From the IMG/VR virus record IMGVR_UViG_2667527373_000007, positions 2,547 to 66,546 of that record: a stretch of 64,000 nt of DNA; one strand, 5' to 3'. The position numbers and the translations under genes were made by a program. Positions 30,442-38,713 of this stretch are shown piece by piece. The first letter of the stretch is position 1. Every line of letters starts with the position of its first letter. The notes under the pieces are model-generated. The model searched no databases. It was not told the origin of the DNA and saw only the letters and a list, made by a program, of their open reading frames with translations. This DNA comes from a virus.

Positions 30442-30981
30442 TCACGGTATAAAGTTATAGTTTATCACAAATCTGGAATTTTGTGTAGGCTTGCTGCTTG
30501 CGTGAAAACGTAAACCATCAAAGAATACACAACGTCCTTTCTTTGGTGAGACAGTAGTATTTATACCATATTCTCCAACGGGATCTCCATACATCTTCTC
30601 ACTAAAGTACGTATCTCCGTCACTGTCATTCACATAATATAGACATACATTATGAAAATCTGGTATGTCAACATGCATCTGATCATACTCATGCTCTCTA
30701 ACTCCAGGTGTTTGTAGGAAACATCTCGCACGCAACACCTTTGAGATATTTAATTTTGCATTATCACATGCTTCATATACAAGTGGCATTAATAATCCAC
30801 TGAAATCACTACATGATTCTCCATTAAGAATAAACATATGAGAGAATCCTATCAGTTGATGATCACCATCCTCTACAAGGTTATCATGATAGACCCATCT
30901 GAAGTCAGTATTAAACCTAAGAGTATCCTCTACTGTATTTTGATATGACTTATCAATACAATCATCAATAATGCTCTTCAT
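30442..30981 (-). CDS. 2OG-Fe(II) oxygenase
   Basis: HVD...LYYVNDSDGDT...FFDGLRFHAS...RFVINYN. Confidence 0.8.
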   Translation of the reverse strand: MKSIIDDCIDKSYQNTVEDTLRFNTDFRWVYHDNLVEDGDHQLIGFSHMFILNGESCSDFSGLLMPLVYEACDNAKLNISKVLRARCFLQTPGVREHEYDQMHVDIPDFHNVCLYYVNDSDGDTYFSEKMYGDPVGEYGINTTVSPKKGRCVFFDGLRFHASSKPTQNSRFVINYNFIP

Positions 30982-31591
30982 CTGGTCCCTCCACTGCCCA
31001 TGTAATATTACCTGCGACAGTTACTCTTTCATGATCACTAGTATAATAAGGATAAACAGCATGATTAGTAGTAGCAGGAAATAAAAGCATACTACCATTC
31101 CATGAATTATCTACTGGCAATACTTCTCCTTCTAATTGAAATGCACCATTACTTTTATGTGCATCCCTCTCATTAGGACCATAAGGTATATCAATGAATA
31201 TAGCAAAACTAGCAATACCAGCATGATTATGCATAGGATTATATTCTCCTTTCTTTTGATAATTAACCCATAGATTATGAAGTTTCATAAATCTTGTTGG
31301 ATCCTTACAAGTATTAAACTCCCAAGGACATGTCAAATATATTTCATTCCATAACTTTGCAGCATTATTTAAAAGGTATTGTTCTAATCCTGGACATTCG
31401 TATTTGTGTTCACCTAGACTAGATTGTTGATTTAATGCTCCAGCAAGTCTCCAATTAAAATTCCATATCTTATCATGTCTTCTTCTTTCACAATAAGAAC
31501 GAAGATCATTATAGATATTCTCTGGTAATTTCTCTGCTACAAATGTTAAATTTGATTGAGTATGTATATTATCCATAATATAAATCTGCAC
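30965..31591 (-). CDS. putative 2OG-Fe(II) oxygenase (HxH type)
   Basis: WVNYQKKGEYNPMHNH...LFPATTNHAVYP...RVTVAGN. Confidence 0.8.
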   Translation of the reverse strand: MQIYIMDNIHTQSNLTFVAEKLPENIYNDLRSYCERRRHDKIWNFNWRLAGALNQQSSLGEHKYECPGLEQYLLNNAAKLWNEIYLTCPWEFNTCKDPTRFMKLHNLWVNYQKKGEYNPMHNHAGIASFAIFIDIPYGPNERDAHKSNGAFQLEGEVLPVDNSWNGSMLLFPATTNHAVYPYYTSDHERVTVAGNITWAVEGPDEEHY

Positions 31592-32066
31592 TTAATGAGT
31601 AACGTTTTTCATCATCCATTCCTCTACCTGGTATATGCGGAAGATTGGAAGGGAATATAAACCAAGTTAACATTTTCTTTGGTAAGAAATATCTACCACC
31701 TGGCATTGGAAACATTGTAGTTCCAGATTGTTTAGTAAATCGTAAGAACATTATACCAGATAAAGTATATGGATTCTCACTGTTATGAGCGTGCATATAA
31801 GGTTCTTTTGGATTTCCTTTCCAATCAACATATACCCAAGAATTTATTTTGTAATTAGATACATCCATATCCCAATATCTAGAACATGAATCATAATATG
31901 AATATTTTAATTTTTCTAGAACTGGAATTTGATATTCTAAAAAGTAATCCTCAGTCTTTGAAACAGTAGGATTATCTTGATATGTTATATTATCAATAAA
32001 ATCTATCAGAGTATCTAACTCATCATTATTTAACTGACATGGATATTCTTTAATTCCTAGTACCAT
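31569..32066 (-). CDS. putative 2OG-Fe(II) oxygenase (HxH type)
   Basis: HAH...LSGIMFL...FIFPSNLPH...RYSLSAD. Confidence 0.7.
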   Translation of the reverse strand: MVLGIKEYPCQLNNDELDTLIDFIDNITYQDNPTVSKTEDYFLEYQIPVLEKLKYSYYDSCSRYWDMDVSNYKINSWVYVDWKGNPKEPYMHAHNSENPYTLSGIMFLRFTKQSGTTMFPMPGGRYFLPKKMLTWFIFPSNLPHIPGRGMDDEKRYSLSADLYYG

Positions 32067-32656
32067 TTTCTAGTTGTCTGACTTATGATTTGAGCATGTA
32101 TTTTAGGATCACAAAAAGAAAACGCAATGGTTGTTCTTATATCATTTCCAATTAAATCATTAGGAGGATGTCCTTTGTGTTCCCAATTAGAAGGAATAAA
32201 TGCACCTGAGTTTGGCATATATGGTACATAATGGTAGACACCATCAGGACTTTGGGCAACAAACTCTCCACCCCATTCTATATTCCAATAATGTTGATTG
32301 AAATAAATGAATGTCCATACATCATCTTCCTGAAAGTCTTTATGAAAAACTGTGTTCTGTCCAGCAGTCTGACCATTAACATGTATCTTACACAACTTCA
32401 ATGGTCTCCTAAGATATTTCATCATCTTAAGTTTAACTGTAGTAGCACACTTCTCAAATATTAAATCTGTTCTTAATGGATGTTGCCATGATATAGGATC
32501 ACCCTTTCCATAAGATGCATTATTATATGTCCATGTTGCAAGACTATTAATAGCAGGTGACTTACGATCAAAATATTGATATAAAATATCTATTTCATTT
32601 CTTGGAAGGACATCATAGATTACTATTGGTTGATTCATGCAGCCCACCATAACCAT
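32057..32656 (-). CDS. 2OG-Fe(II) oxygenase
   Basis: HKD...WGGEF...FIPSNWEHKG...RTTIAF. Confidence 0.82.
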   Translation of the reverse strand: MVMVGCMNQPIVIYDVLPRNEIDILYQYFDRKSPAINSLATWTYNNASYGKGDPISWQHPLRTDLIFEKCATTVKLKMMKYLRRPLKLCKIHVNGQTAGQNTVFHKDFQEDDVWTFIYFNQHYWNIEWGGEFVAQSPDGVYHYVPYMPNSGAFIPSNWEHKGHPPNDLIGNDIRTTIAFSFCDPKIHAQIISQTTRKWY

Positions 32657-33225
32657 CCTGTAATAATATATTTCTCATGTTCCTCAGAGATTTGTCCTCT
32701 GTGCTTATGAGTTAATCCAGCAGGAAATATAACTGTATTACCTTTTAAAGCTCTAGTAGTATAGTCTTGATAATAAAACTCAGTACCACCATTAGGAACA
32801 TCATTTAGATATGTGATAAACACAAATGCTCTATCACATCCATCCAAACCAGAAGCATCTACATGCCATGTATAAAAACCATCTCCAGGTTTGTAGTATT
32901 GAATCTGTGGTAGATGTTTCATTACAAACTCTAGGTTCTCAATTTTTAAATCATCAAGATAAGAAGCAATAAAACCATCTAATTCATTTGAATACTTATC
33001 GTATTTAAAATCATCAGGTTTACCAAGACTACCTCCTTCACCCAACATAAAATCTTTACTCTTTTTGATATCAGGTATTATACTTCCACCACCTACTCTA
33101 CCAGCATAAGTGAGATCATTCTTATCAGCTTTCCAAAATAGATCTATGAGACTATCACAGATACTAAGATCCTTCAGTTGATATTCTTTAATAAAATTCA
33201 TTTGTATGCTGGTCCTTGTGTCCAC
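32635..33225 (-). CDS. 2OG-Fe(II) oxygenase (prolyl-4-hydroxylase-like)
   Basis: QIQYYKPGDGFYTWHVD...YLNDVPNGGTEF...IFPAGLTHKHRG...KYIITGW; the start is probably MNFIKEY. Confidence 0.88.
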   Translation of the reverse strand: MDTRTSIQMNFIKEYQLKDLSICDSLIDLFWKADKNDLTYAGRVGGGSIIPDIKKSKDFMLGEGGSLGKPDDFKYDKYSNELDGFIASYLDDLKIENLEFVMKHLPQIQYYKPGDGFYTWHVDASGLDGCDRAFVFITYLNDVPNGGTEFYYQDYTTRALKGNTVIFPAGLTHKHRGQISEEHEKYIITGWLWWAA

Positions 33226-33764
33226 CCTACTAATGATTTCCTAACACCAGAAGTAACTTCTCTCACTCTGTGTGGTGTATCAGCATGAAATAGTATGATG
33301 TCTTTCTTTTTCAATTCTACTACATGTTTCTCATTTGTAAAAATCTCAAACTCTCCTCCTTCAAATTCATCATTCAATAATATAGTAAAACTAATCTTCC
33401 TTACTCTACCATTCTGTCTTTTACCAGGAGACCAATTTGATTCATCAATATGCCAATCATAGAAATCTCCTTTCTCATACAATGTATTCTGGAGTGGTTC
33501 TATAAAATCAATATCAAAATTCCATTCTGCTTTTGAATTTGCAAATCTAACTAATCCATCTACCAATGGATATACAGCATTATCATCTATCCAACAAGCT
33601 TTAGATTCTCTGTCTGGATGATCTTCACTATTATATTCTTTTCCATCCCATTGCTCAGTCTTACATCTTGTATAATCATCATACTTTTCAATTACTTTTT
33701 CAAGCTGCGGAAAAAAGTCGTCATCTAAATGAACAATTAGATAACTATGTCTGAAACAATTCAT
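33198..33764 (-). CDS. 2OG-Fe(II) oxygenase (PKHD-type)
   Basis: YDWHID...RKISFTILLNDEFEGGEF...PHRVREVTSGVRKSLVGW. Confidence 0.9.
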   Translation of the reverse strand: MNCFRHSYLIVHLDDDFFPQLEKVIEKYDDYTRCKTEQWDGKEYNSEDHPDRESKACWIDDNAVYPLVDGLVRFANSKAEWNFDIDFIEPLQNTLYEKGDFYDWHIDESNWSPGKRQNGRVRKISFTILLNDEFEGGEFEIFTNEKHVVELKKKDIILFHADTPHRVREVTSGVRKSLVGWTQGPAYK

Positions 33765-35482
33765 TTTTTACAAACCATAATATGAACACCGTTCCACCAA
33801 CCATTAGGATCTTCTGGAACAGGAGAAAGAATCTTTCTATCAAATAAAACTTTTATTTCATTTTCTTTAACCCAAATATTTGCTGACTCTACAACACCCA
33901 TAAAATTAGCATCATCTATTACTATTATAAACTGATCGTCCATAATTGTATAGAGGTATGTTAGATTATCATATTGTTGTTGTGGATCATGACTAGCATC
34001 ATAAAATATAACATTACATTTCTTACCATTAAAATGACTTTCAGATAATTTCTGAATAGTTAATGGTAAAAATATTTGATTTGGTTTTAATGATCTAAGT
34101 AAAGTATTCTTTGGATTTTCTACTTTGTATCCTTCATGTCCTATAACTTTATTACCTGCATCCCATGCATCCTTTTCACGGAAAGGTGCAATATTAGATT
34201 CTGAATAATCATCAACACAGAATGATGTAAGATCATTATTCATAGTAGCAGCAACAAAAGTACTACCAGCATGTACACCTAATTCCAAGTACACTGCATC
34301 TTCTTTAGAACATAAGTTATTTAAAAAATGTCTAACAATATTAGATGACAGTCCTGGTATATCATATCCTTCTTCTACAAAATTACTTTCTCTTCTTCCT
34401 GCCTTTTCAATAGAATCCAACACCAATTTAATATCAGGATCCATTGTTCTTTCACCCTTTTTCATTCTAGAGTGAACAACAGAATCACAGTAATTACATT
34501 CCCAACAATCAAACTTACAAGTCTTAATCTTGTTTCTCCATATATCAATTGGTTTCTCTTCTAGTGTAGTATCTTCAATATACTGATCAAATTGAGGATA
34601 TAATAATTCCTCATCACTAGACCATCTCTTGATGATATCCATAGATTCCATTAAACGCATAGCATTTTCTCTACCATGCATCTTAAATACATCTATGCCA
34701 AGATCAAGAAACTCTTGCCAATCTTCTTTCCAAGGTGGAATTGTTGCTTGCTTTAAAGCATTTGCTGGATCTCTTTCATCCCAACCAGAACAAGAAACCC
34801 TACTAATTGAATCATTAAAATATTGTGGATCTTTTTCCTCCCTCACCATATTGTAATGATAATGTTCTGGCATGATAGGGCAACCACCCCAACACCACTC
34901 ATTAGCAAGAAGTGATATCTTAACTGGTTTACCTATTTCAGCACAATATGCTTTTGCCTTCATGATGCGATCTAACTGATCACGATCACGCATTAAATCT
35001 CTATCAAGATTCACATAATGAAATCCTGCCTTTGCTAGATTAACTATCTCGTTTGCTCTGGTTACTTCTCTGAGGATAGTATTTTTAATAAAAATATCTG
35101 GAAATGCTTTCTGTATCTGTCCAGTTAACGCCCATGTTGTATGAGGAATGGTGATAATTTTAACACCTGCTTCATACAAAGGAGCAAAGTTCTGAATAAA
35201 AATATCCAGATTTCTCTGATTAGGAGTTACCTGGATATTATTAAATGTTGCTGACAGAGGGATACCAGTTTGTTCAGAAACATACAATGCATTGAATGTA
35301 GTTTCTCTTTCATCACCATCTATTACGTCACCCATTGCATCCTGCTGAAAAGGAGGCATACGACACGTAAAATATATGTCGTAAATATAATCCTTATATT
35401 CTTTCAGGAATGGAATAAATGATTGTGTTACAAATTCTTCAGGAAGTTTTGTATTCAGTGGGATTGAGAAATGTTTCGCCAT
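33761..35482 (-). CDS. peptidase-U32-like Fe-S protein fused to a class I SAM-dependent methyltransferase
   Basis: GFHYVNLDRDL, NEWCWGGCP, RVSC, LGIDVFKMHGRE, CKFDCWECNYC; C-terminal YLELGVHAGSTF, VIFYDASH, IVIDD. Confidence 0.75.
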   Translation of the reverse strand: MAKHFSIPLNTKLPEEFVTQSFIPFLKEYKDYIYDIYFTCRMPPFQQDAMGDVIDGDERETTFNALYVSEQTGIPLSATFNNIQVTPNQRNLDIFIQNFAPLYEAGVKIITIPHTTWALTGQIQKAFPDIFIKNTILREVTRANEIVNLAKAGFHYVNLDRDLMRDRDQLDRIMKAKAYCAEIGKPVKISLLANEWCWGGCPIMPEHYHYNMVREEKDPQYFNDSISRVSCSGWDERDPANALKQATIPPWKEDWQEFLDLGIDVFKMHGRENAMRLMESMDIIKRWSSDEELLYPQFDQYIEDTTLEEKPIDIWRNKIKTCKFDCWECNYCDSVVHSRMKKGERTMDPDIKLVLDSIEKAGRRESNFVEEGYDIPGLSSNIVRHFLNNLCSKEDAVYLELGVHAGSTFVAATMNNDLTSFCVDDYSESNIAPFREKDAWDAGNKVIGHEGYKVENPKNTLLRSLKPNQIFLPLTIQKLSESHFNGKKCNVIFYDASHDPQQQYDNLTYLYTIMDDQFIIVIDDANFMGVVESANIWVKENEIKVLFDRKILSPVPEDPNGWWNGVHIMVCKK

Positions 35483-35699
35483 AATCTTTAATCACTTTTT
35501 CCACAAATATATGTTCATTAGCAGTATCTGATAACAAAGCTTTGTTATCAATTGCAAGTTGTCTCAATACAGGTCTGTTAAGATCCTTGTCTTTATTTTC
35601 GAGCGCGTACCGATCATATACTAACATGTGTATGACAGGTAACAGCTCTTCCCATCTCTCAGCACTTGCTGACCATGTTGCTCCAGGACTATTCGGCAT
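35439..35699 (-). CDS. hypothetical protein
   Basis: 86-aa ORF coupled within the cassette. Confidence 0.7.
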   Translation of the reverse strand: MPNSPGATWSASAERWEELLPVIHMLVYDRYALENKDKDLNRPVLRQLAIDNKALLSDTANEHIFVEKVIKDYGETFLNPTEYKTS

Positions 35700-36579
35700 C
35701 TTTTGTTCCCTCTTTCAAATGTAGCTGTCCTGAATATTTATGGCTTAAAAACTTTGGCATTGTAATACCTTCACCTTTTAACTGCTCTTGAATAGCAGGA
35801 GCAAAAGTTTTTTGTATTTTATCAACACCACCACCTATCATTCCAGAGAATTGAACTGCTACTTCTAGACATGCAACCTGATCTTCTTCAGGCATATCTA
35901 AAATAGAAGTCATATTACCAGCACCAATTCTACCATAGGAAATAATATCCATAGCAGCTTGCTTGCCCATTCTCGCGATCCAATAAGTCTTCTCCTCAGC
36001 CTCATGTTCTGTTAAGAAATACTCTAAAGGATGATCATCATCAACATATTTTTTAACAATATCCAAGAAGTACTTTAACTCCAATTCTGACTGACGGAGT
36101 TTTCTTCTCCAGATACCAATGTCATAATCATTTTTCTCTAAATCAATCTGAATAAATCCAGCATCAATATCATCTCCACCTTCTGCTTCTACATTCTCAA
36201 TAGAACGAAGGAATTTCTTTCTAAGTAATTCTGCTTTTCTAAGACTATGCCTATTTTCCATATAAGCATGATATCTAGTTTCTAGTTCCATCAATGCTTG
36301 ACGGACTTTTCTCCAAGGAGTAATTTGTGAGTCTGCCACAAAATGCTCACATTGAAATCTAGTCATACCGCTATTAAAGCGCATTGAACCTACTAGAATA
36401 TCAAAGTCATTATCATCAAAATCGAATTCATTAACGAATGATTTTGCTAGGTTAATTTCACCTGTTTCACTACTAACGATGTTATTTACGTCAGCAATAA
36501 TATCCGATAACTCTGCGTTATAATCTAATCGCGTTTTGTTAGGATCACTACTAGTTGTCAGACTAGAATTTAAAGACAT
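35689..36579 (-). CDS. hypothetical helical protein of the fibre-associated cassette
   Basis: 296 aa; MTRFQCEHFV...TPWRKVRQALMEL; coupled to its neighbours. Confidence 0.75.
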   Translation of the reverse strand: MSLNSSLTTSSDPNKTRLDYNAELSDIIADVNNIVSSETGEINLAKSFVNEFDFDDNDFDILVGSMRFNSGMTRFQCEHFVADSQITPWRKVRQALMELETRYHAYMENRHSLRKAELLRKKFLRSIENVEAEGGDDIDAGFIQIDLEKNDYDIGIWRRKLRQSELELKYFLDIVKKYVDDDHPLEYFLTEHEAEEKTYWIARMGKQAAMDIISYGRIGAGNMTSILDMPEEDQVACLEVAVQFSGMIGGGVDKIQKTFAPAIQEQLKGEGITMPKFLSHKYSGQLHLKEGTKDAE

Positions 36580-37378
36580 ATGCTTCTACCTCATACTCTG
36601 GTTTACGATCCCAGTCAGTATCAGATTTGGTGCGACCCATTTCAATTGCCTGTGATTGTGGCAACATAATACCGATGTGATCTTCATACAATATATTTAT
36701 GTCCCATATTGTATCACATTCTTCAAACTTTTTCAATAGTTTTTGATAAGAAACAAGCATTGTAGATAGTTGATCTTGATATGCTTCTGCCTTTTCTAAA
36801 ATCTTATTTGCTAATACATTCTTTTCTATAGCTCTTTCTGTAGCAAGGTAGTCAAGGAAAGGTGTTTTATGTCCATCTGCACCTTTGAATGCTAACCATT
36901 CTCTTGCTTCATGCTTTTGTATTTCCCAAGAAGCAACTTCCAAATCAGATGTATCTCTTAGATTCTTAATTCTTACGTTGAACTCGTCTTCAATAATTTC
37001 TTTTGCAAAGACATACATGAATTCAATGACTTCTTTCTTAATTTCATCTGTCATTTCTACAGGAACTTTAAGAATACCACCAGCAGGAGTCCATGCTTGA
37101 GCAACACCCTGTTCATTGACTGTTGCCATTACCTTACCAAAAGGTCTAGTCTCACCGAAAAAGTTAGATCCGTTAATAGCTTGTTTTTTAGTAATCTCTT
37201 TAAACTTGTGTTCCCACTCTTTAGAGATTACTTGGAACACTTCTTCAGTTACTTCTATACATGAAAAATGCATTAACTGAAAGATCGCATGGTAATGCAT
37301 CCTTTCGTCTAATGTCTCTGAAACATTGACAAACTGAGCTTGGTCGATCTCTTTTTCGTTTACGATTATGTATCTCAT
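36563..37378 (-). CDS. possible tail-fibre assembly chaperone-like protein
   Basis: Likely start MRYII (ATGA overlap with the upstream stop); SWEIQKHEAREW...PFLDYLA..R.I....LANKI..KA..Y pattern as in DUF4376-like chaperones. Confidence 0.55.
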   Translation of the reverse strand: MRYIIVNEKEIDQAQFVNVSETLDERMHYHAIFQLMHFSCIEVTEEVFQVISKEWEHKFKEITKKQAINGSNFFGETRPFGKVMATVNEQGVAQAWTPAGGILKVPVEMTDEIKKEVIEFMYVFAKEIIEDEFNVRIKNLRDTSDLEVASWEIQKHEAREWLAFKGADGHKTPFLDYLATERAIEKNVLANKILEKAEAYQDQLSTMLVSYQKLLKKFEECDTIWDINILYEDHIGIMLPQSQAIEMGRTKSDTDWDRKPEYEVEAYVFKF

Positions 37379-38661
37379 TATTGTGCCTGTAATGCGGTTA
37401 ACGCGGTGGCAGCTGAAGCACATCCACCAGATGATTGACCATAATGACCTTTAGGTCTTGTTGCTGGTCCCATGTTTGTCTCAACGTCAGTTGAATAATC
37501 CCACTTCGTAGTGTGGTTGTTCTGCTGACCGTCGTATTGTCCCATCATATATCCTTTGTCTTGTCCCATCATCATGTTCTCTTCACCATAAGCACGAACC
37601 TTAGTTCCGTTCTTAATACCATTTCCACTTGAACCATTATACTTAGTCCAAGGAGAAGTAACGTTGTTACCAGTTCCACAGTAGAAATGTCCATACTTGG
37701 AAGGAAGTGGTTTACAAACTCCGTCAGGTGCAGCGTTAGAAGACCAACCACCCCAACTATCGTTAGAATGATTACAGTAGTATCTACTTCCTCTGAATGA
37801 TGCCCATGTTCTATCTTCATCACCACATGATGCAGTGTGGTCAGAACCAGAAGGTGAGTTACCTGCCTGATACATGATTTCAGTTGGGAAGTGTAACTTA
37901 CCTACAGCAGAGTTTCCTCCACCTAAGTTATATCCATGCTGTTGTACTTGTGCAGTAGCACATGAGTTTCTATCCCTAGAAACAGGCATGTTCCAACCAC
38001 CAACAGTACCATATCCCATAACACCTCGTGGATCATCTCCTTCCCAACCATAGTTAGAAGGTGAATAAGTACCACCGCCAGGGTTTGATCCTGTAGTACC
38101 AAACATTCGTCTCATTCCAGTATGGAGGTTGATCGAACATGTGTGGTTAGAGTTTCCAGTGAATGAGTTAACACATCCATGACCATAACCGAAGTAATCA
38201 CTCCAAGTACAGTCAGCGTATGTTAATGCGCGGTCAAGTTGTTCTCCACAATAGAACGTAATGTCATTAGCGTGCCAAGTCTTATTAACAGTTCTCCAAG
38301 GATTAGATCCTTTGTAACCAGCAATCAGATAACCATGTGTAATCAAACTTCTGTATCTAAATCCTGTTAAAGGAGCAGATGCAACTGTCTGTCCTGGGTA
38401 TGCCCAGAATACACCGTTACTACCATCAGATACGAGGTAAGATCCTCTTGTGATATCAGTTGGAGCAGGAATACCACCACCAACGTCATCCCAATCACTA
38501 CCACCCCAAATTTGGGCTTTGCCTTCATCAGAGTTCCAGATCAGTTGTCCTGTATTAGGAGAACCAGGTCTATTGGAATTTGTGTATGACGGCAACCGAA
38601 GTCCTGTTCCGCTTAAACTAGCGGCCCCAGTGACGACAGTACCAACTGTTAATTGTGACAT
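37378..38661 (-). CDS. putative fibre-tip / Kelch-like propeller protein
   Basis: N-terminal MSQLTVGTV and LRLP...RP..P..GQLIWN......W fibre-type motif; repeated G(Y/F)xx(A/G)G blades. Confidence 0.55.
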   Translation of the reverse strand: MSQLTVGTVVTGAASLSGTGLRLPSYTNSNRPGSPNTGQLIWNSDEGKAQIWGGSDWDDVGGGIPAPTDITRGSYLVSDGSNGVFWAYPGQTVASAPLTGFRYRSLITHGYLIAGYKGSNPWRTVNKTWHANDITFYCGEQLDRALTYADCTWSDYFGYGHGCVNSFTGNSNHTCSINLHTGMRRMFGTTGSNPGGGTYSPSNYGWEGDDPRGVMGYGTVGGWNMPVSRDRNSCATAQVQQHGYNLGGGNSAVGKLHFPTEIMYQAGNSPSGSDHTASCGDEDRTWASFRGSRYYCNHSNDSWGGWSSNAAPDGVCKPLPSKYGHFYCGTGNNVTSPWTKYNGSSGNGIKNGTKVRAYGEENMMMGQDKGYMMGQYDGQQNNHTTKWDYSTDVETNMGPATRPKGHYGQSSGGCASAATALTALQAQ

Positions 38662-38705: not shown

Positions 38706-38713
38706 TATTTATA
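38706..38713 (-). promoter_or_regulatory. T4 late promoter TATAAATA heading the oxygenase cassette
   Basis: Exact consensus overlapping the fibre stop; a second GATAAATA at 38693-38700. Confidence 0.7.

Follow-up and report, generated by a model that had tools for sequence, protein, structure and literature searches.

A fusion gene of two enzyme-like domains in a cyanomyovirus

We analysed a 64,000-nucleotide stretch of viral DNA (IMG/VR record IMGVR_UViG_2667527373_000007, positions 2,547 to 66,546; hereafter the window), which is a fragment of a marine T4-like cyanomyovirus with every gene on the minus strand. One of these genes encodes a protein that joins a barrel domain, remotely related to the peptidase U32 family, to an S-adenosylmethionine (SAM) methyltransferase domain, and this fusion probably turns a C-H bond of its target into a methoxy group. 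The protein consists of a TIM barrel (residues 1-290), a helical segment carrying a CX3CX2CX2C motif (322-332) and the methyltransferase domain (369-573). Its features are the following.

33761..35482, minus strand: whole gene of the U32-like/O-methyltransferase fusion, stop codon included, 573 amino acids (aa); open reading frame (ORF) list and translation
34613..35482, minus strand: (beta/alpha)8 barrel, assigned as a divergent U32-superfamily domain, residues 1-290; AlphaFold2 (AF2) model, fold match and hhalign
34862..34900, minus strand: E195-W-C197-W-G-G-C201-P-I-M-P-E-H207, two putative iron-sulfur (Fe-S) cysteines and an invariant histidine; conservation and U32 alignment
34790..34792, minus strand: C231, third putative cluster ligand; invariant, U32 alignment
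34670..34684, minus strand: K267-M-H-G270-R271, counterpart of U32 K-I-E-G-R at the end of the last barrel strand; alignment
34487..34519, minus strand: C322-x3-C326-x2-C329-x2-C332 in the helical segment after the barrel, putative second metal site; invariant cysteines
33764..34378, minus strand: class I SAM methyltransferase domain, cation-dependent O-methyltransferase-like, residues 369-573; fold, Pfam and motifs

By translation of the coordinates, the motifs read EWCWGGC (195-201), Cys231, KMHGR (267-271) and CKFDCWECNYC (322-332), and class I SAM motif I (YLELGVHAGST) occupies residues 398-408. An earlier sequence-only reading of this DNA had listed a cysteine cluster, KxxGR, an extra CxxxCxxCxxC and then a methyltransferase, and the translation contains all of them in that order. 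PHROG 1458 covers the fusion protein over its full length (E 6.8e-230).

Residues D35, N81, C197, C201, H207, C231, K267 and R271 were invariant in 49 homologues, as were all four cysteines of the second motif (C322, C326, C329 and C332), while G270 was conserved in at least 90% of them. The named motifs were also invariant in 31 full-length homologues. Because this invariance extends down to 21% identity among the 49 homologues, the motifs are not chance features. Two further cysteines, C40 and C180, are kept among the phage fusions and not family-wide. The protein is acidic, with an isoelectric point of 5.05 and a net charge of -24, to which the two domains contribute -12 and -11.

The N-terminal domain is a remote homologue of the U32 family

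The AF2 model of the barrel domain, built on the 49-sequence alignment, had a predicted local distance difference test score (pLDDT) of 93.1 and a predicted TM-score (pTM) of 0.92. Compared with 48,161 representative PDB chains, it matched the U32 protein Mk0906 best (5d88_A; Z 16.6, root-mean-square deviation (rmsd) 3.2 Å, 227/247 residues aligned). Foldseek on the barrel likewise gave its best TM-scores to 5d88, which took rank 2 in a fold search with the whole-protein model. Foldseek with the whole protein was uninformative, being dominated by two-domain look-alikes (pyruvate kinase, PRMT5).

For profile comparison, the U32 reference alignment comprised 31 genuine U32 domains, taken from PF01136 matches in E. 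coli K-12 and sampled genomes. Hhalign aligned the 49-member family with it at a probability (Prob) of 96.1 and E 3.5e-9, over 142 columns that cover strands 1-6. The same procedure yielded Prob 0.7 with methylenetetrahydrofolate reductase (MTHFR), 0.3 with an O-methyltransferase family and 0.1 with the reversed U32 alignment, and the best of 20 column shuffles reached 2.1. Two sub-alignments of the fusion family, compared with U32 separately, scored Prob 89.8 and 87.9. A smaller E. coli U32 alignment of four sequences gave only Prob 69, and single-sequence UbiU or UbiV as hhalign templates gave insignificant results. Among ESM Atlas language-model neighbours, the nearest clusters scored 0.96-0.98; PF01136 was present in 20% of the members in two of them, and the third is automatically named 'Peptidase U32 (Fragment)'.

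These profile, fold and language-model tests agree that the N-terminal domain is a remote homologue of the U32 family. The U32-like core predicted by the sequence-only reading was thus returned both by the structure search, with 5d88 first, and by an HHpred-type profile comparison. We also considered an MTHFR-like or generic TIM barrel. MTHFR was the second fold match (Z 13.4, rmsd 4.7 Å, 3.2 Z units below 5d88), but its profile probability was that of the control given above, and this candidate was rejected.

Residue correspondences were read through an extended hhalign alignment with the 31 U32 domains.

N81: U32 N column, 29/31
Y37: U32 Y column, 30/31
R161: U32 R column, 29/31
C197: U32 Cys1, 29/31
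C201: U32 Cys2, 31/31
C231: U32 Cys3, 31/31 (extended alignment)
K267, G270 and R271: K, G and R of U32 K-I-E-G-R, 29/31 each

With the stand-alone subfamily, which lacks the methyltransferase, the Cys1/Cys2 and KxxGR columns aligned with U32 at default hhalign stringency, and C231 fell on Cys4. As C231 falls on Cys3 or on Cys4 depending on the alignment, we count three of the four U32 cysteines as matched. In U32 proteins the cluster cysteines are typically arranged as CX6CX15CX3/4C; the ligand set of UbiV differs (CXnCX12CX3C), so the cysteines vary within the family (PMC6747719). The C322-C332 motif had no counterpart in the U32 alignment, and the fold search barely covered this segment.

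The C-terminal domain resembles O-methyltransferases

The best fold matches of residues 369-573 were 8c9v (an O-methyltransferase, Z 15.5), TrmR of B. subtilis (5zw3, Z 15.1), 3tr6 (Z 15.0) and 5x7f (Z 14.9). Residues E400, G402, G406, S407, D424, D495-A-S-H498 and D523-D-A-N526 were invariant in the 31 full-length homologues, and many relatives carry precomputed PF13578 matches. Within a weak hhalign alignment with PF01596 proteins (Prob 6.7), D495-x-x-H498 lies on DADK and D523-D524 on DN, the positions at which that group carries its metal-binding Asp/Asp/Asn triad and its catalytic base.

Judged from the model, the domain has a class I SAM methyltransferase fold with the glycine-rich motif I and, behind strand 2, an acidic residue, and it seems to resemble the cation-dependent O-methyltransferases. 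O-methylation is the favoured reading because the top folds are O-methyltransferases and because D495, H498 and D523-D524 are in register and invariant. The class I SAM methyltransferase that the sequence-only reading had placed after the barrel is borne out by these fold matches, TrmR among them, and with the invariant SAM motif.

The fusion gene belongs to a conserved fibre cassette

Downstream of the enzyme gene, the window holds neck, gp15 and terminase genes, and upstream it holds three giant fibre-type genes. The GC content is 33-43%, as in an AT-rich phage. The closer neighbours are listed below.

35689..36579, minus strand: u296 (phrog_1409), partner gene upstream of the enzyme; synteny
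36563..38661, minus strand: u427 (glycine/aromatic-rich fibre-tip-type protein) and u286, the first two cassette genes; PHROGs 1417 and 1604
38706..38713, minus strand: match to the late promoter consensus of T4-type phages (TATAAATA), immediately upstream of u427; pattern search
30442..33764, minus strand: six tandem 2-oxoglutarate (2OG)-Fe(II) oxygenase-type genes directly downstream of the enzyme; Pfam and PHROG
35439-35699, minus strand: u86, an 86-aa ORF between u296 and the enzyme gene that overlaps both, u296 at its end and the enzyme gene at its start; ORF

The genes from u427 through the first 2OG oxygenase overlap or abut. In ~45 related viral loci the order is giant fibre, u427, u286, u296, (u86), enzyme, variable block, d70, gp13-like, neck and gp15; u86 is kept only in closer relatives and has no family match. 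The late promoter consensus has only three matches in the window, without enrichment over chance, so that it is only consistent with late expression.

The sequence-only reading had noted six O2-dependent hydroxylases next to the fusion, and six 2OG-type genes are indeed present. PF13640 or PF13759 was detected in five of them (three above the curated cut-off, two weak), and the sixth, of 165 aa, matched only PHROG 81, a 2OG family. Between 0 and 6 oxygenases occupy the variable block among related phages, with one to three PF13759 genes in the oxygenase slot of distant phages. At several loci, such as L054, L073 and L075, the fusion gene is followed directly by the neck module, with zero oxygenases. 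Separately, the oxygenase block of one distant cyanophage (L060:8321-9106, plus strand) encodes a 261-aa protein with a weak Fer4 4Fe-4S motif (E 3e-4).

In all cyanophage loci whose flank was available, u296 was situated upstream of the enzyme gene, and in the Ralstonia jumbo phage RP12 a phrog_1409 gene directly precedes a barrel-only (N-domain-only) gene. Among 50,697 phage records, phrog_1409 was found in 121 and the enzyme in 126, with an identical host split. The u296 protein is helical and acidic, belongs to no known family and had no match in a PDB sequence search. It is likely to be a partner, a chaperone or a substrate of the enzyme.

Relatives in phages, bacteria and metagenomes

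Homologues of the fusion number at least 1936 in 90% clusters, in addition to the 126 phage records. The family has only ~350 representatives in a representative library of 1.84 billion proteins, and in the ocean it is represented by thousands of metagenome proteins. Taking the ~463 cyanophage records marked by gp15 as the denominator, the U32-like module is present in roughly 27%.

A subfamily of 400-450 aa without methyltransferase occurs in metagenome-assembled genomes (MAGs) and, in three copies, in a complete Dehalogenimonas genome. The neighbours of these Dehalogenimonas cousins include reductive dehalogenases, a response regulator and DAHP synthase, the last directly downstream of the cousin at one locus; DAHP synthase feeds the prephenate pathway. 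Two of the three cousins in this genome (CP139473.1) adjoin B12-binding radical SAM proteins of 714-715 aa with a C-terminal PqqD (L090:4753-6900, minus strand; L093:9322-11466, plus strand), PqqD being a peptide-recognition domain. A deltaproteobacterial cousin adjoins pyruvate:ferredoxin oxidoreductase.

Three marine MAG contigs share a co-directional cluster (L108:4462-12609, plus strand, with the same order in L099 and L106) of three GT9 glycosyltransferases, an uncharacterised gene, the cousin, a 2OG oxygenase, carbamoyltransferase N, DUF6445 and carbamoyltransferase C. The contigs are labelled Chloroflexota, Pelagibacterales and Nitrososphaerales, and the sharing of one gene order across three taxon labels suggests that a virus or mobile element was binned into the MAGs. 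For P0138 and P0151, which are stand-alone proteins, locus searches found no viral relatives.

Some relatives have odd architectures. In P0125 (553 aa) the barrel is followed by a glycine-rich fibre-type domain (~336-553) instead of a methyltransferase; this may be a true fusion or a gene-calling artefact. PDB sequence searches with P0133, P0125 and P0128 gave no match, and hidden Markov models (HMMs) of u296, u286 and u427 had no match among the representatives.

In RP12, a collagen-repeat protein is encoded three genes upstream of the barrel-only gene (L145:3393-3905, plus strand), and the start of a gene for a 346-aa DUF401/citrate-transporter-like membrane protein overlaps the stop of the barrel-only gene (L145:7016-8056, plus strand). 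In Prochlorococcus phage P-SSM3 (HQ337021.1) the homologue appeared in two tblastn pieces (L146:7004-8688) without an annotated coding sequence, PRAG_00161 being skipped; this copy may be frameshifted or split in the record. Borderline PF01136 matches at L131 and L132 (genomes G018 and G032; E 2e-4 and 5e-4) covered profile positions 5-65 only, and the corresponding frames of 381 and 365 aa might represent further divergent U32-like families.

Discussion

From the homology, the fold, the conserved residues and the synteny we infer metal binding, two activities, their coupling and the kind of target. The fusion would be made late in infection. In its barrel, C197, C201 and C231 most likely bind a [4Fe-4S] cluster at the C-terminal face, beside D35, N81, K267 and R271. 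The fourth ligand could be H207 or a cysteine from the C-terminal motif, or the fourth iron could have an open site. The CX3CX2CX2C motif is probably a second metal centre and possibly an electron-relay cluster, replacing the second subunit of the UbiU-UbiV pair. The C-terminal half would be a SAM-dependent and probably metal-dependent O-methyltransferase. We propose that the barrel hydroxylates a substrate carbon and that the tethered methyltransferase then methylates the new hydroxyl to give a methoxy group, for which the precedents are TrhP with TrmR on tRNA U34 and UbiU/V with UbiG on the ubiquinone ring.

U32 proteins bind 4Fe-4S clusters through conserved cysteines, and in UbiU-UbiV each of the two subunits has a cluster of its own (PMC6747719). 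The characterised U32 proteins are without exception hydroxylases that depend on Fe-S cysteines (PMC6747719, PMC6599085, PMC10990095), and prephenate is their oxygen donor (PMC10990095). Cluster binding with hydroxylation from prephenate is known only for UbiU/V, TrhP and RlhA. The yrrM-yrrN-yrrO operon of B. subtilis encodes TrmR, TrhP2 and TrhP1; TrhP acts on tRNA U34 to form 5-hydroxyuridine (ho5U), which TrmR methylates to 5-methoxyuridine (mo5U) (PMC6599085). The published work (PMC6599085, PMC6747719) confirms what the sequence-only reading had given as established, namely that U32 proteins are O2-independent Fe-S hydroxylases and that TrhP1/2 act with TrmR in Bacillus.

In TrhP (E. coli YegQ; B. 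subtilis YrrO/YrrN) and TrmR (YrrM), too, a U32 barrel goes together with a SAM O-methyltransferase of the catechol type; Bacillus has their genes in one operon, whereas the phage has both in one polypeptide. YegQ and the phage barrel have three cluster cysteines and KxxGR in common. Unlike TrhP, the phage protein has no PF01136 match, lacks Cys4 and the TrhP C-terminal domain, shows CX3C spacing, carries the extra four-cysteine motif, is acidic and is located in a phage fibre cassette. UbiU-UbiV (with UbiG) follows the logic that we propose for the phage, in that an Fe-S U32 hydroxylase acts without O2 and its product, the ubiquinone ring, is O-methylated. This system is a heterodimer of two U32 proteins with the lipid carrier UbiT, whereas the phage has a single barrel and a separate four-cysteine motif. 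Mk0906 of Methanopyrus kandleri, the best structural match, has only 8% identity with the barrel and no methyltransferase. TrhO-TrmR fusions, which exist in Phytophthora and Phaeodactylum (PMC6599085), combine a hydroxylase and a capping O-methyltransferase in one gene as the phage fusion would, but TrhO is a rhodanese-type, O2-dependent hydroxylase unrelated to U32.

Several results weigh against our interpretation. Curated models gave no Pfam match for the N-terminal domain, neither for the fusion protein (PF01136 none at E up to 1) nor for the 49 relatives (PF01136 none at E up to 0.1, and no other Pfam family). A six-frame PF01136 search of the genome record was negative, and the same model was positive in 8 control genomes; NCBIfam and PDB sequence searches of the domain also found no match. 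At hhalign defaults, the alignment of the broad family with U32 is of low confidence past residue 180. Mk0906, the only solved U32 protein, is atypical and is itself missed by the E. coli U32 profile. In the alignment, the fourth U32 cysteine has no counterpart in the fusion family, and the cysteines are spaced CX3C...X29...C, with X3 between Cys1 and Cys2 where U32 has X6. For the C-terminal domain, PF13578 (Methyltransf_24) scored below threshold on residues 399-524 (18.7 bits against a cut-off of 26.3; E 0.0034), the hhalign comparison with PF01596 was the weak one noted above, and Rossmann methyltransferases of many specificities follow only 1-3 Z units below the top match (range Z 15.5-12.4). 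The remaining neighbourhoods of the cousins are heterogeneous, some of them virus-like, with Mre11/Rad50-like genes or a glycine-rich protein. Finally, the barrels of Ralstonia phages come without any methyltransferase, so the job of the barrel does not require methylation.

We conclude from the alignments that the barrel appears to be a new, very divergent branch of the U32 superfamily rather than a member of PF01136, since three of the four cysteines are matched, the spacing is CX3C and a four-cysteine motif has been added. The 'Peptidase-U32' label of the sequence-only reading therefore holds as remote profile and fold homology with KxxGR, and fails as membership of PF01136, for which there was no HMM match. 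Because Cys4 is absent and CX3C replaces CX6C, the chemistry may differ from that of U32 proteins.

As for the target, we lean towards a virion or surface component (a side chain of a fibre protein, or a glycan attached to it) or towards a small molecule that the cassette produces. The reason is that the gene is always accompanied by the fibre-tip gene and by two helpers, phrog_1409 among them, and in most cases also by 2OG oxygenases. We lean away from RNA because the protein is acidic and lacks an RNA-binding C-domain, because its gene lies in a late fibre cassette and because its cousins occur in glycan or peptide tailoring clusters. A two-enzyme fusion that hydroxylates and then methylates to leave a methoxy group, on a target of this kind rather than on RNA, is the reading that we tentatively favour. 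A more specific version is doubtful: an O2-independent methoxylating enzyme, guided by phrog_1409, that would decorate an aromatic side chain or a sugar of the receptor-binding fibre tip, using a three-cysteine (plus histidine) catalytic cluster and a four-cysteine relay cluster.

The two halves may alternatively not act in sequence. The methyltransferase would then cap hydroxyls installed by the 2OG oxygenases, and the barrel would carry out another redox or non-redox step of the same pathway. A model for this is found in cephamycin synthesis, where the 2OG hydroxylase CmcJ is followed by the class I methyltransferase CmcI, in the same hydroxylate-then-O-methylate logic. The phage locus resembles this pair in having 2OG oxygenases beside a methyltransferase of the same broad fold, and PF13578 belongs to the same broad methyltransferase group as CmcI. 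Moreover, 2OG oxygenases follow the gene in most loci, distant ones included, and one follows the barrel-only cousin in the marine MAG contigs, while the barrel is short of one U32 cysteine. Against this, the fusion does not vary, unlike the number of oxygenases, which ranges from 0 to 6, with none between fusion and neck at the loci named above. A gene fusion also usually points to consecutive steps more strongly than a neighbouring position does. We consider such a division of labour doubtful as well.

The fusion could also copy TrhP and TrmR, so that tRNA (or rRNA) of the host or the phage would receive 5-methoxyuridine or another base of the xo5 type; this would widen wobble reading for AT-rich phage genes. 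The low GC content of this phage fits such a role, TrhP and RlhA, both characterised U32 enzymes, have RNA as their substrate, TrmR methylates ho5U (PMC6599085), and TrmR is among the three best folds of the C-terminal domain; other O-methyltransferases, however, score like TrmR. The strongly negative charge of both domains and the absence of the U32 C-terminal domain of TrhP argue against an RNA substrate. So does the position in a late fibre cassette, among fibre-tip, helper and 2OG oxygenase genes and away from early or translation genes. The only tRNA in the window is tRNA-Asn (GTT), which does not belong to the U34 family-box tRNAs. We regard this reading as unlikely.

Quite improbable, in our view, is a non-canonical radical SAM enzyme, in which a C-terminal CX3CX2C would bind a cluster that cleaves SAM in concert with the barrel, as in ThiC-like enzymes; U32-type hydroxylation would then give way to radical C-H functionalisation or to methylation. 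In favour of it, the invariant C322-x3-C326-x2-C329 is spaced as in radical SAM enzymes, the barrel has only three cluster cysteines and two Dehalogenimonas cousins adjoin radical SAM proteins. However, a fourth invariant cysteine (C332) follows, the aromatic residue is out of its usual position and the motif lies after the barrel instead of after strand 1. Neither the fusion protein nor its 49 relatives matched PF04055, and the top 50 fold matches contained no radical SAM structure, although a weaker match may exist below them; the specific profile and motif match points to U32. Very improbable is a genuine peptidase in the older 'U32 collagenase' sense, which would trim a virion protein and to which an unrelated methyltransferase would be attached: the family name, early PrtC reports and the collagen-like protein near the RP12 barrel gene speak for it, but the invariant residues are cysteines and KxxGR with no protease catalytic set, the window contains no collagen-type G-X-Y runs, and all characterised U32 proteins are Fe-S-cysteine hydroxylases (PMC6747719, PMC6599085, PMC10990095).

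The favoured reading, a fusion that hydroxylates and then methylates, concerns a family that is both distinctive and widespread. Curated models do not see it, it keeps three of the four cluster cysteines, has an added invariant four-cysteine motif and is fused to an O-methyltransferase in phages; roughly 27% of cyanomyovirus records contain it, and cousins of it occur in strict anaerobes. That U32 proteins are O2-independent Fe-S hydroxylases was recognised only between 2017 and 2019, and their oxygen donor was named in 2024. To our knowledge only three U32 substrates are known, namely tRNA U34, 23S rRNA C2501 and the ubiquinone ring. Knowledge of the substrate would extend U32 chemistry and explain what a conserved cassette next to cyanophage tail-fibre genes does. 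Should the fibre be the target, the enzyme would provide an enzymatic tuning of host recognition, and methoxylation of the fibre tip, if true, would be a new kind of post-translational modification of virus particles and a new branch of U32 Fe-S chemistry.

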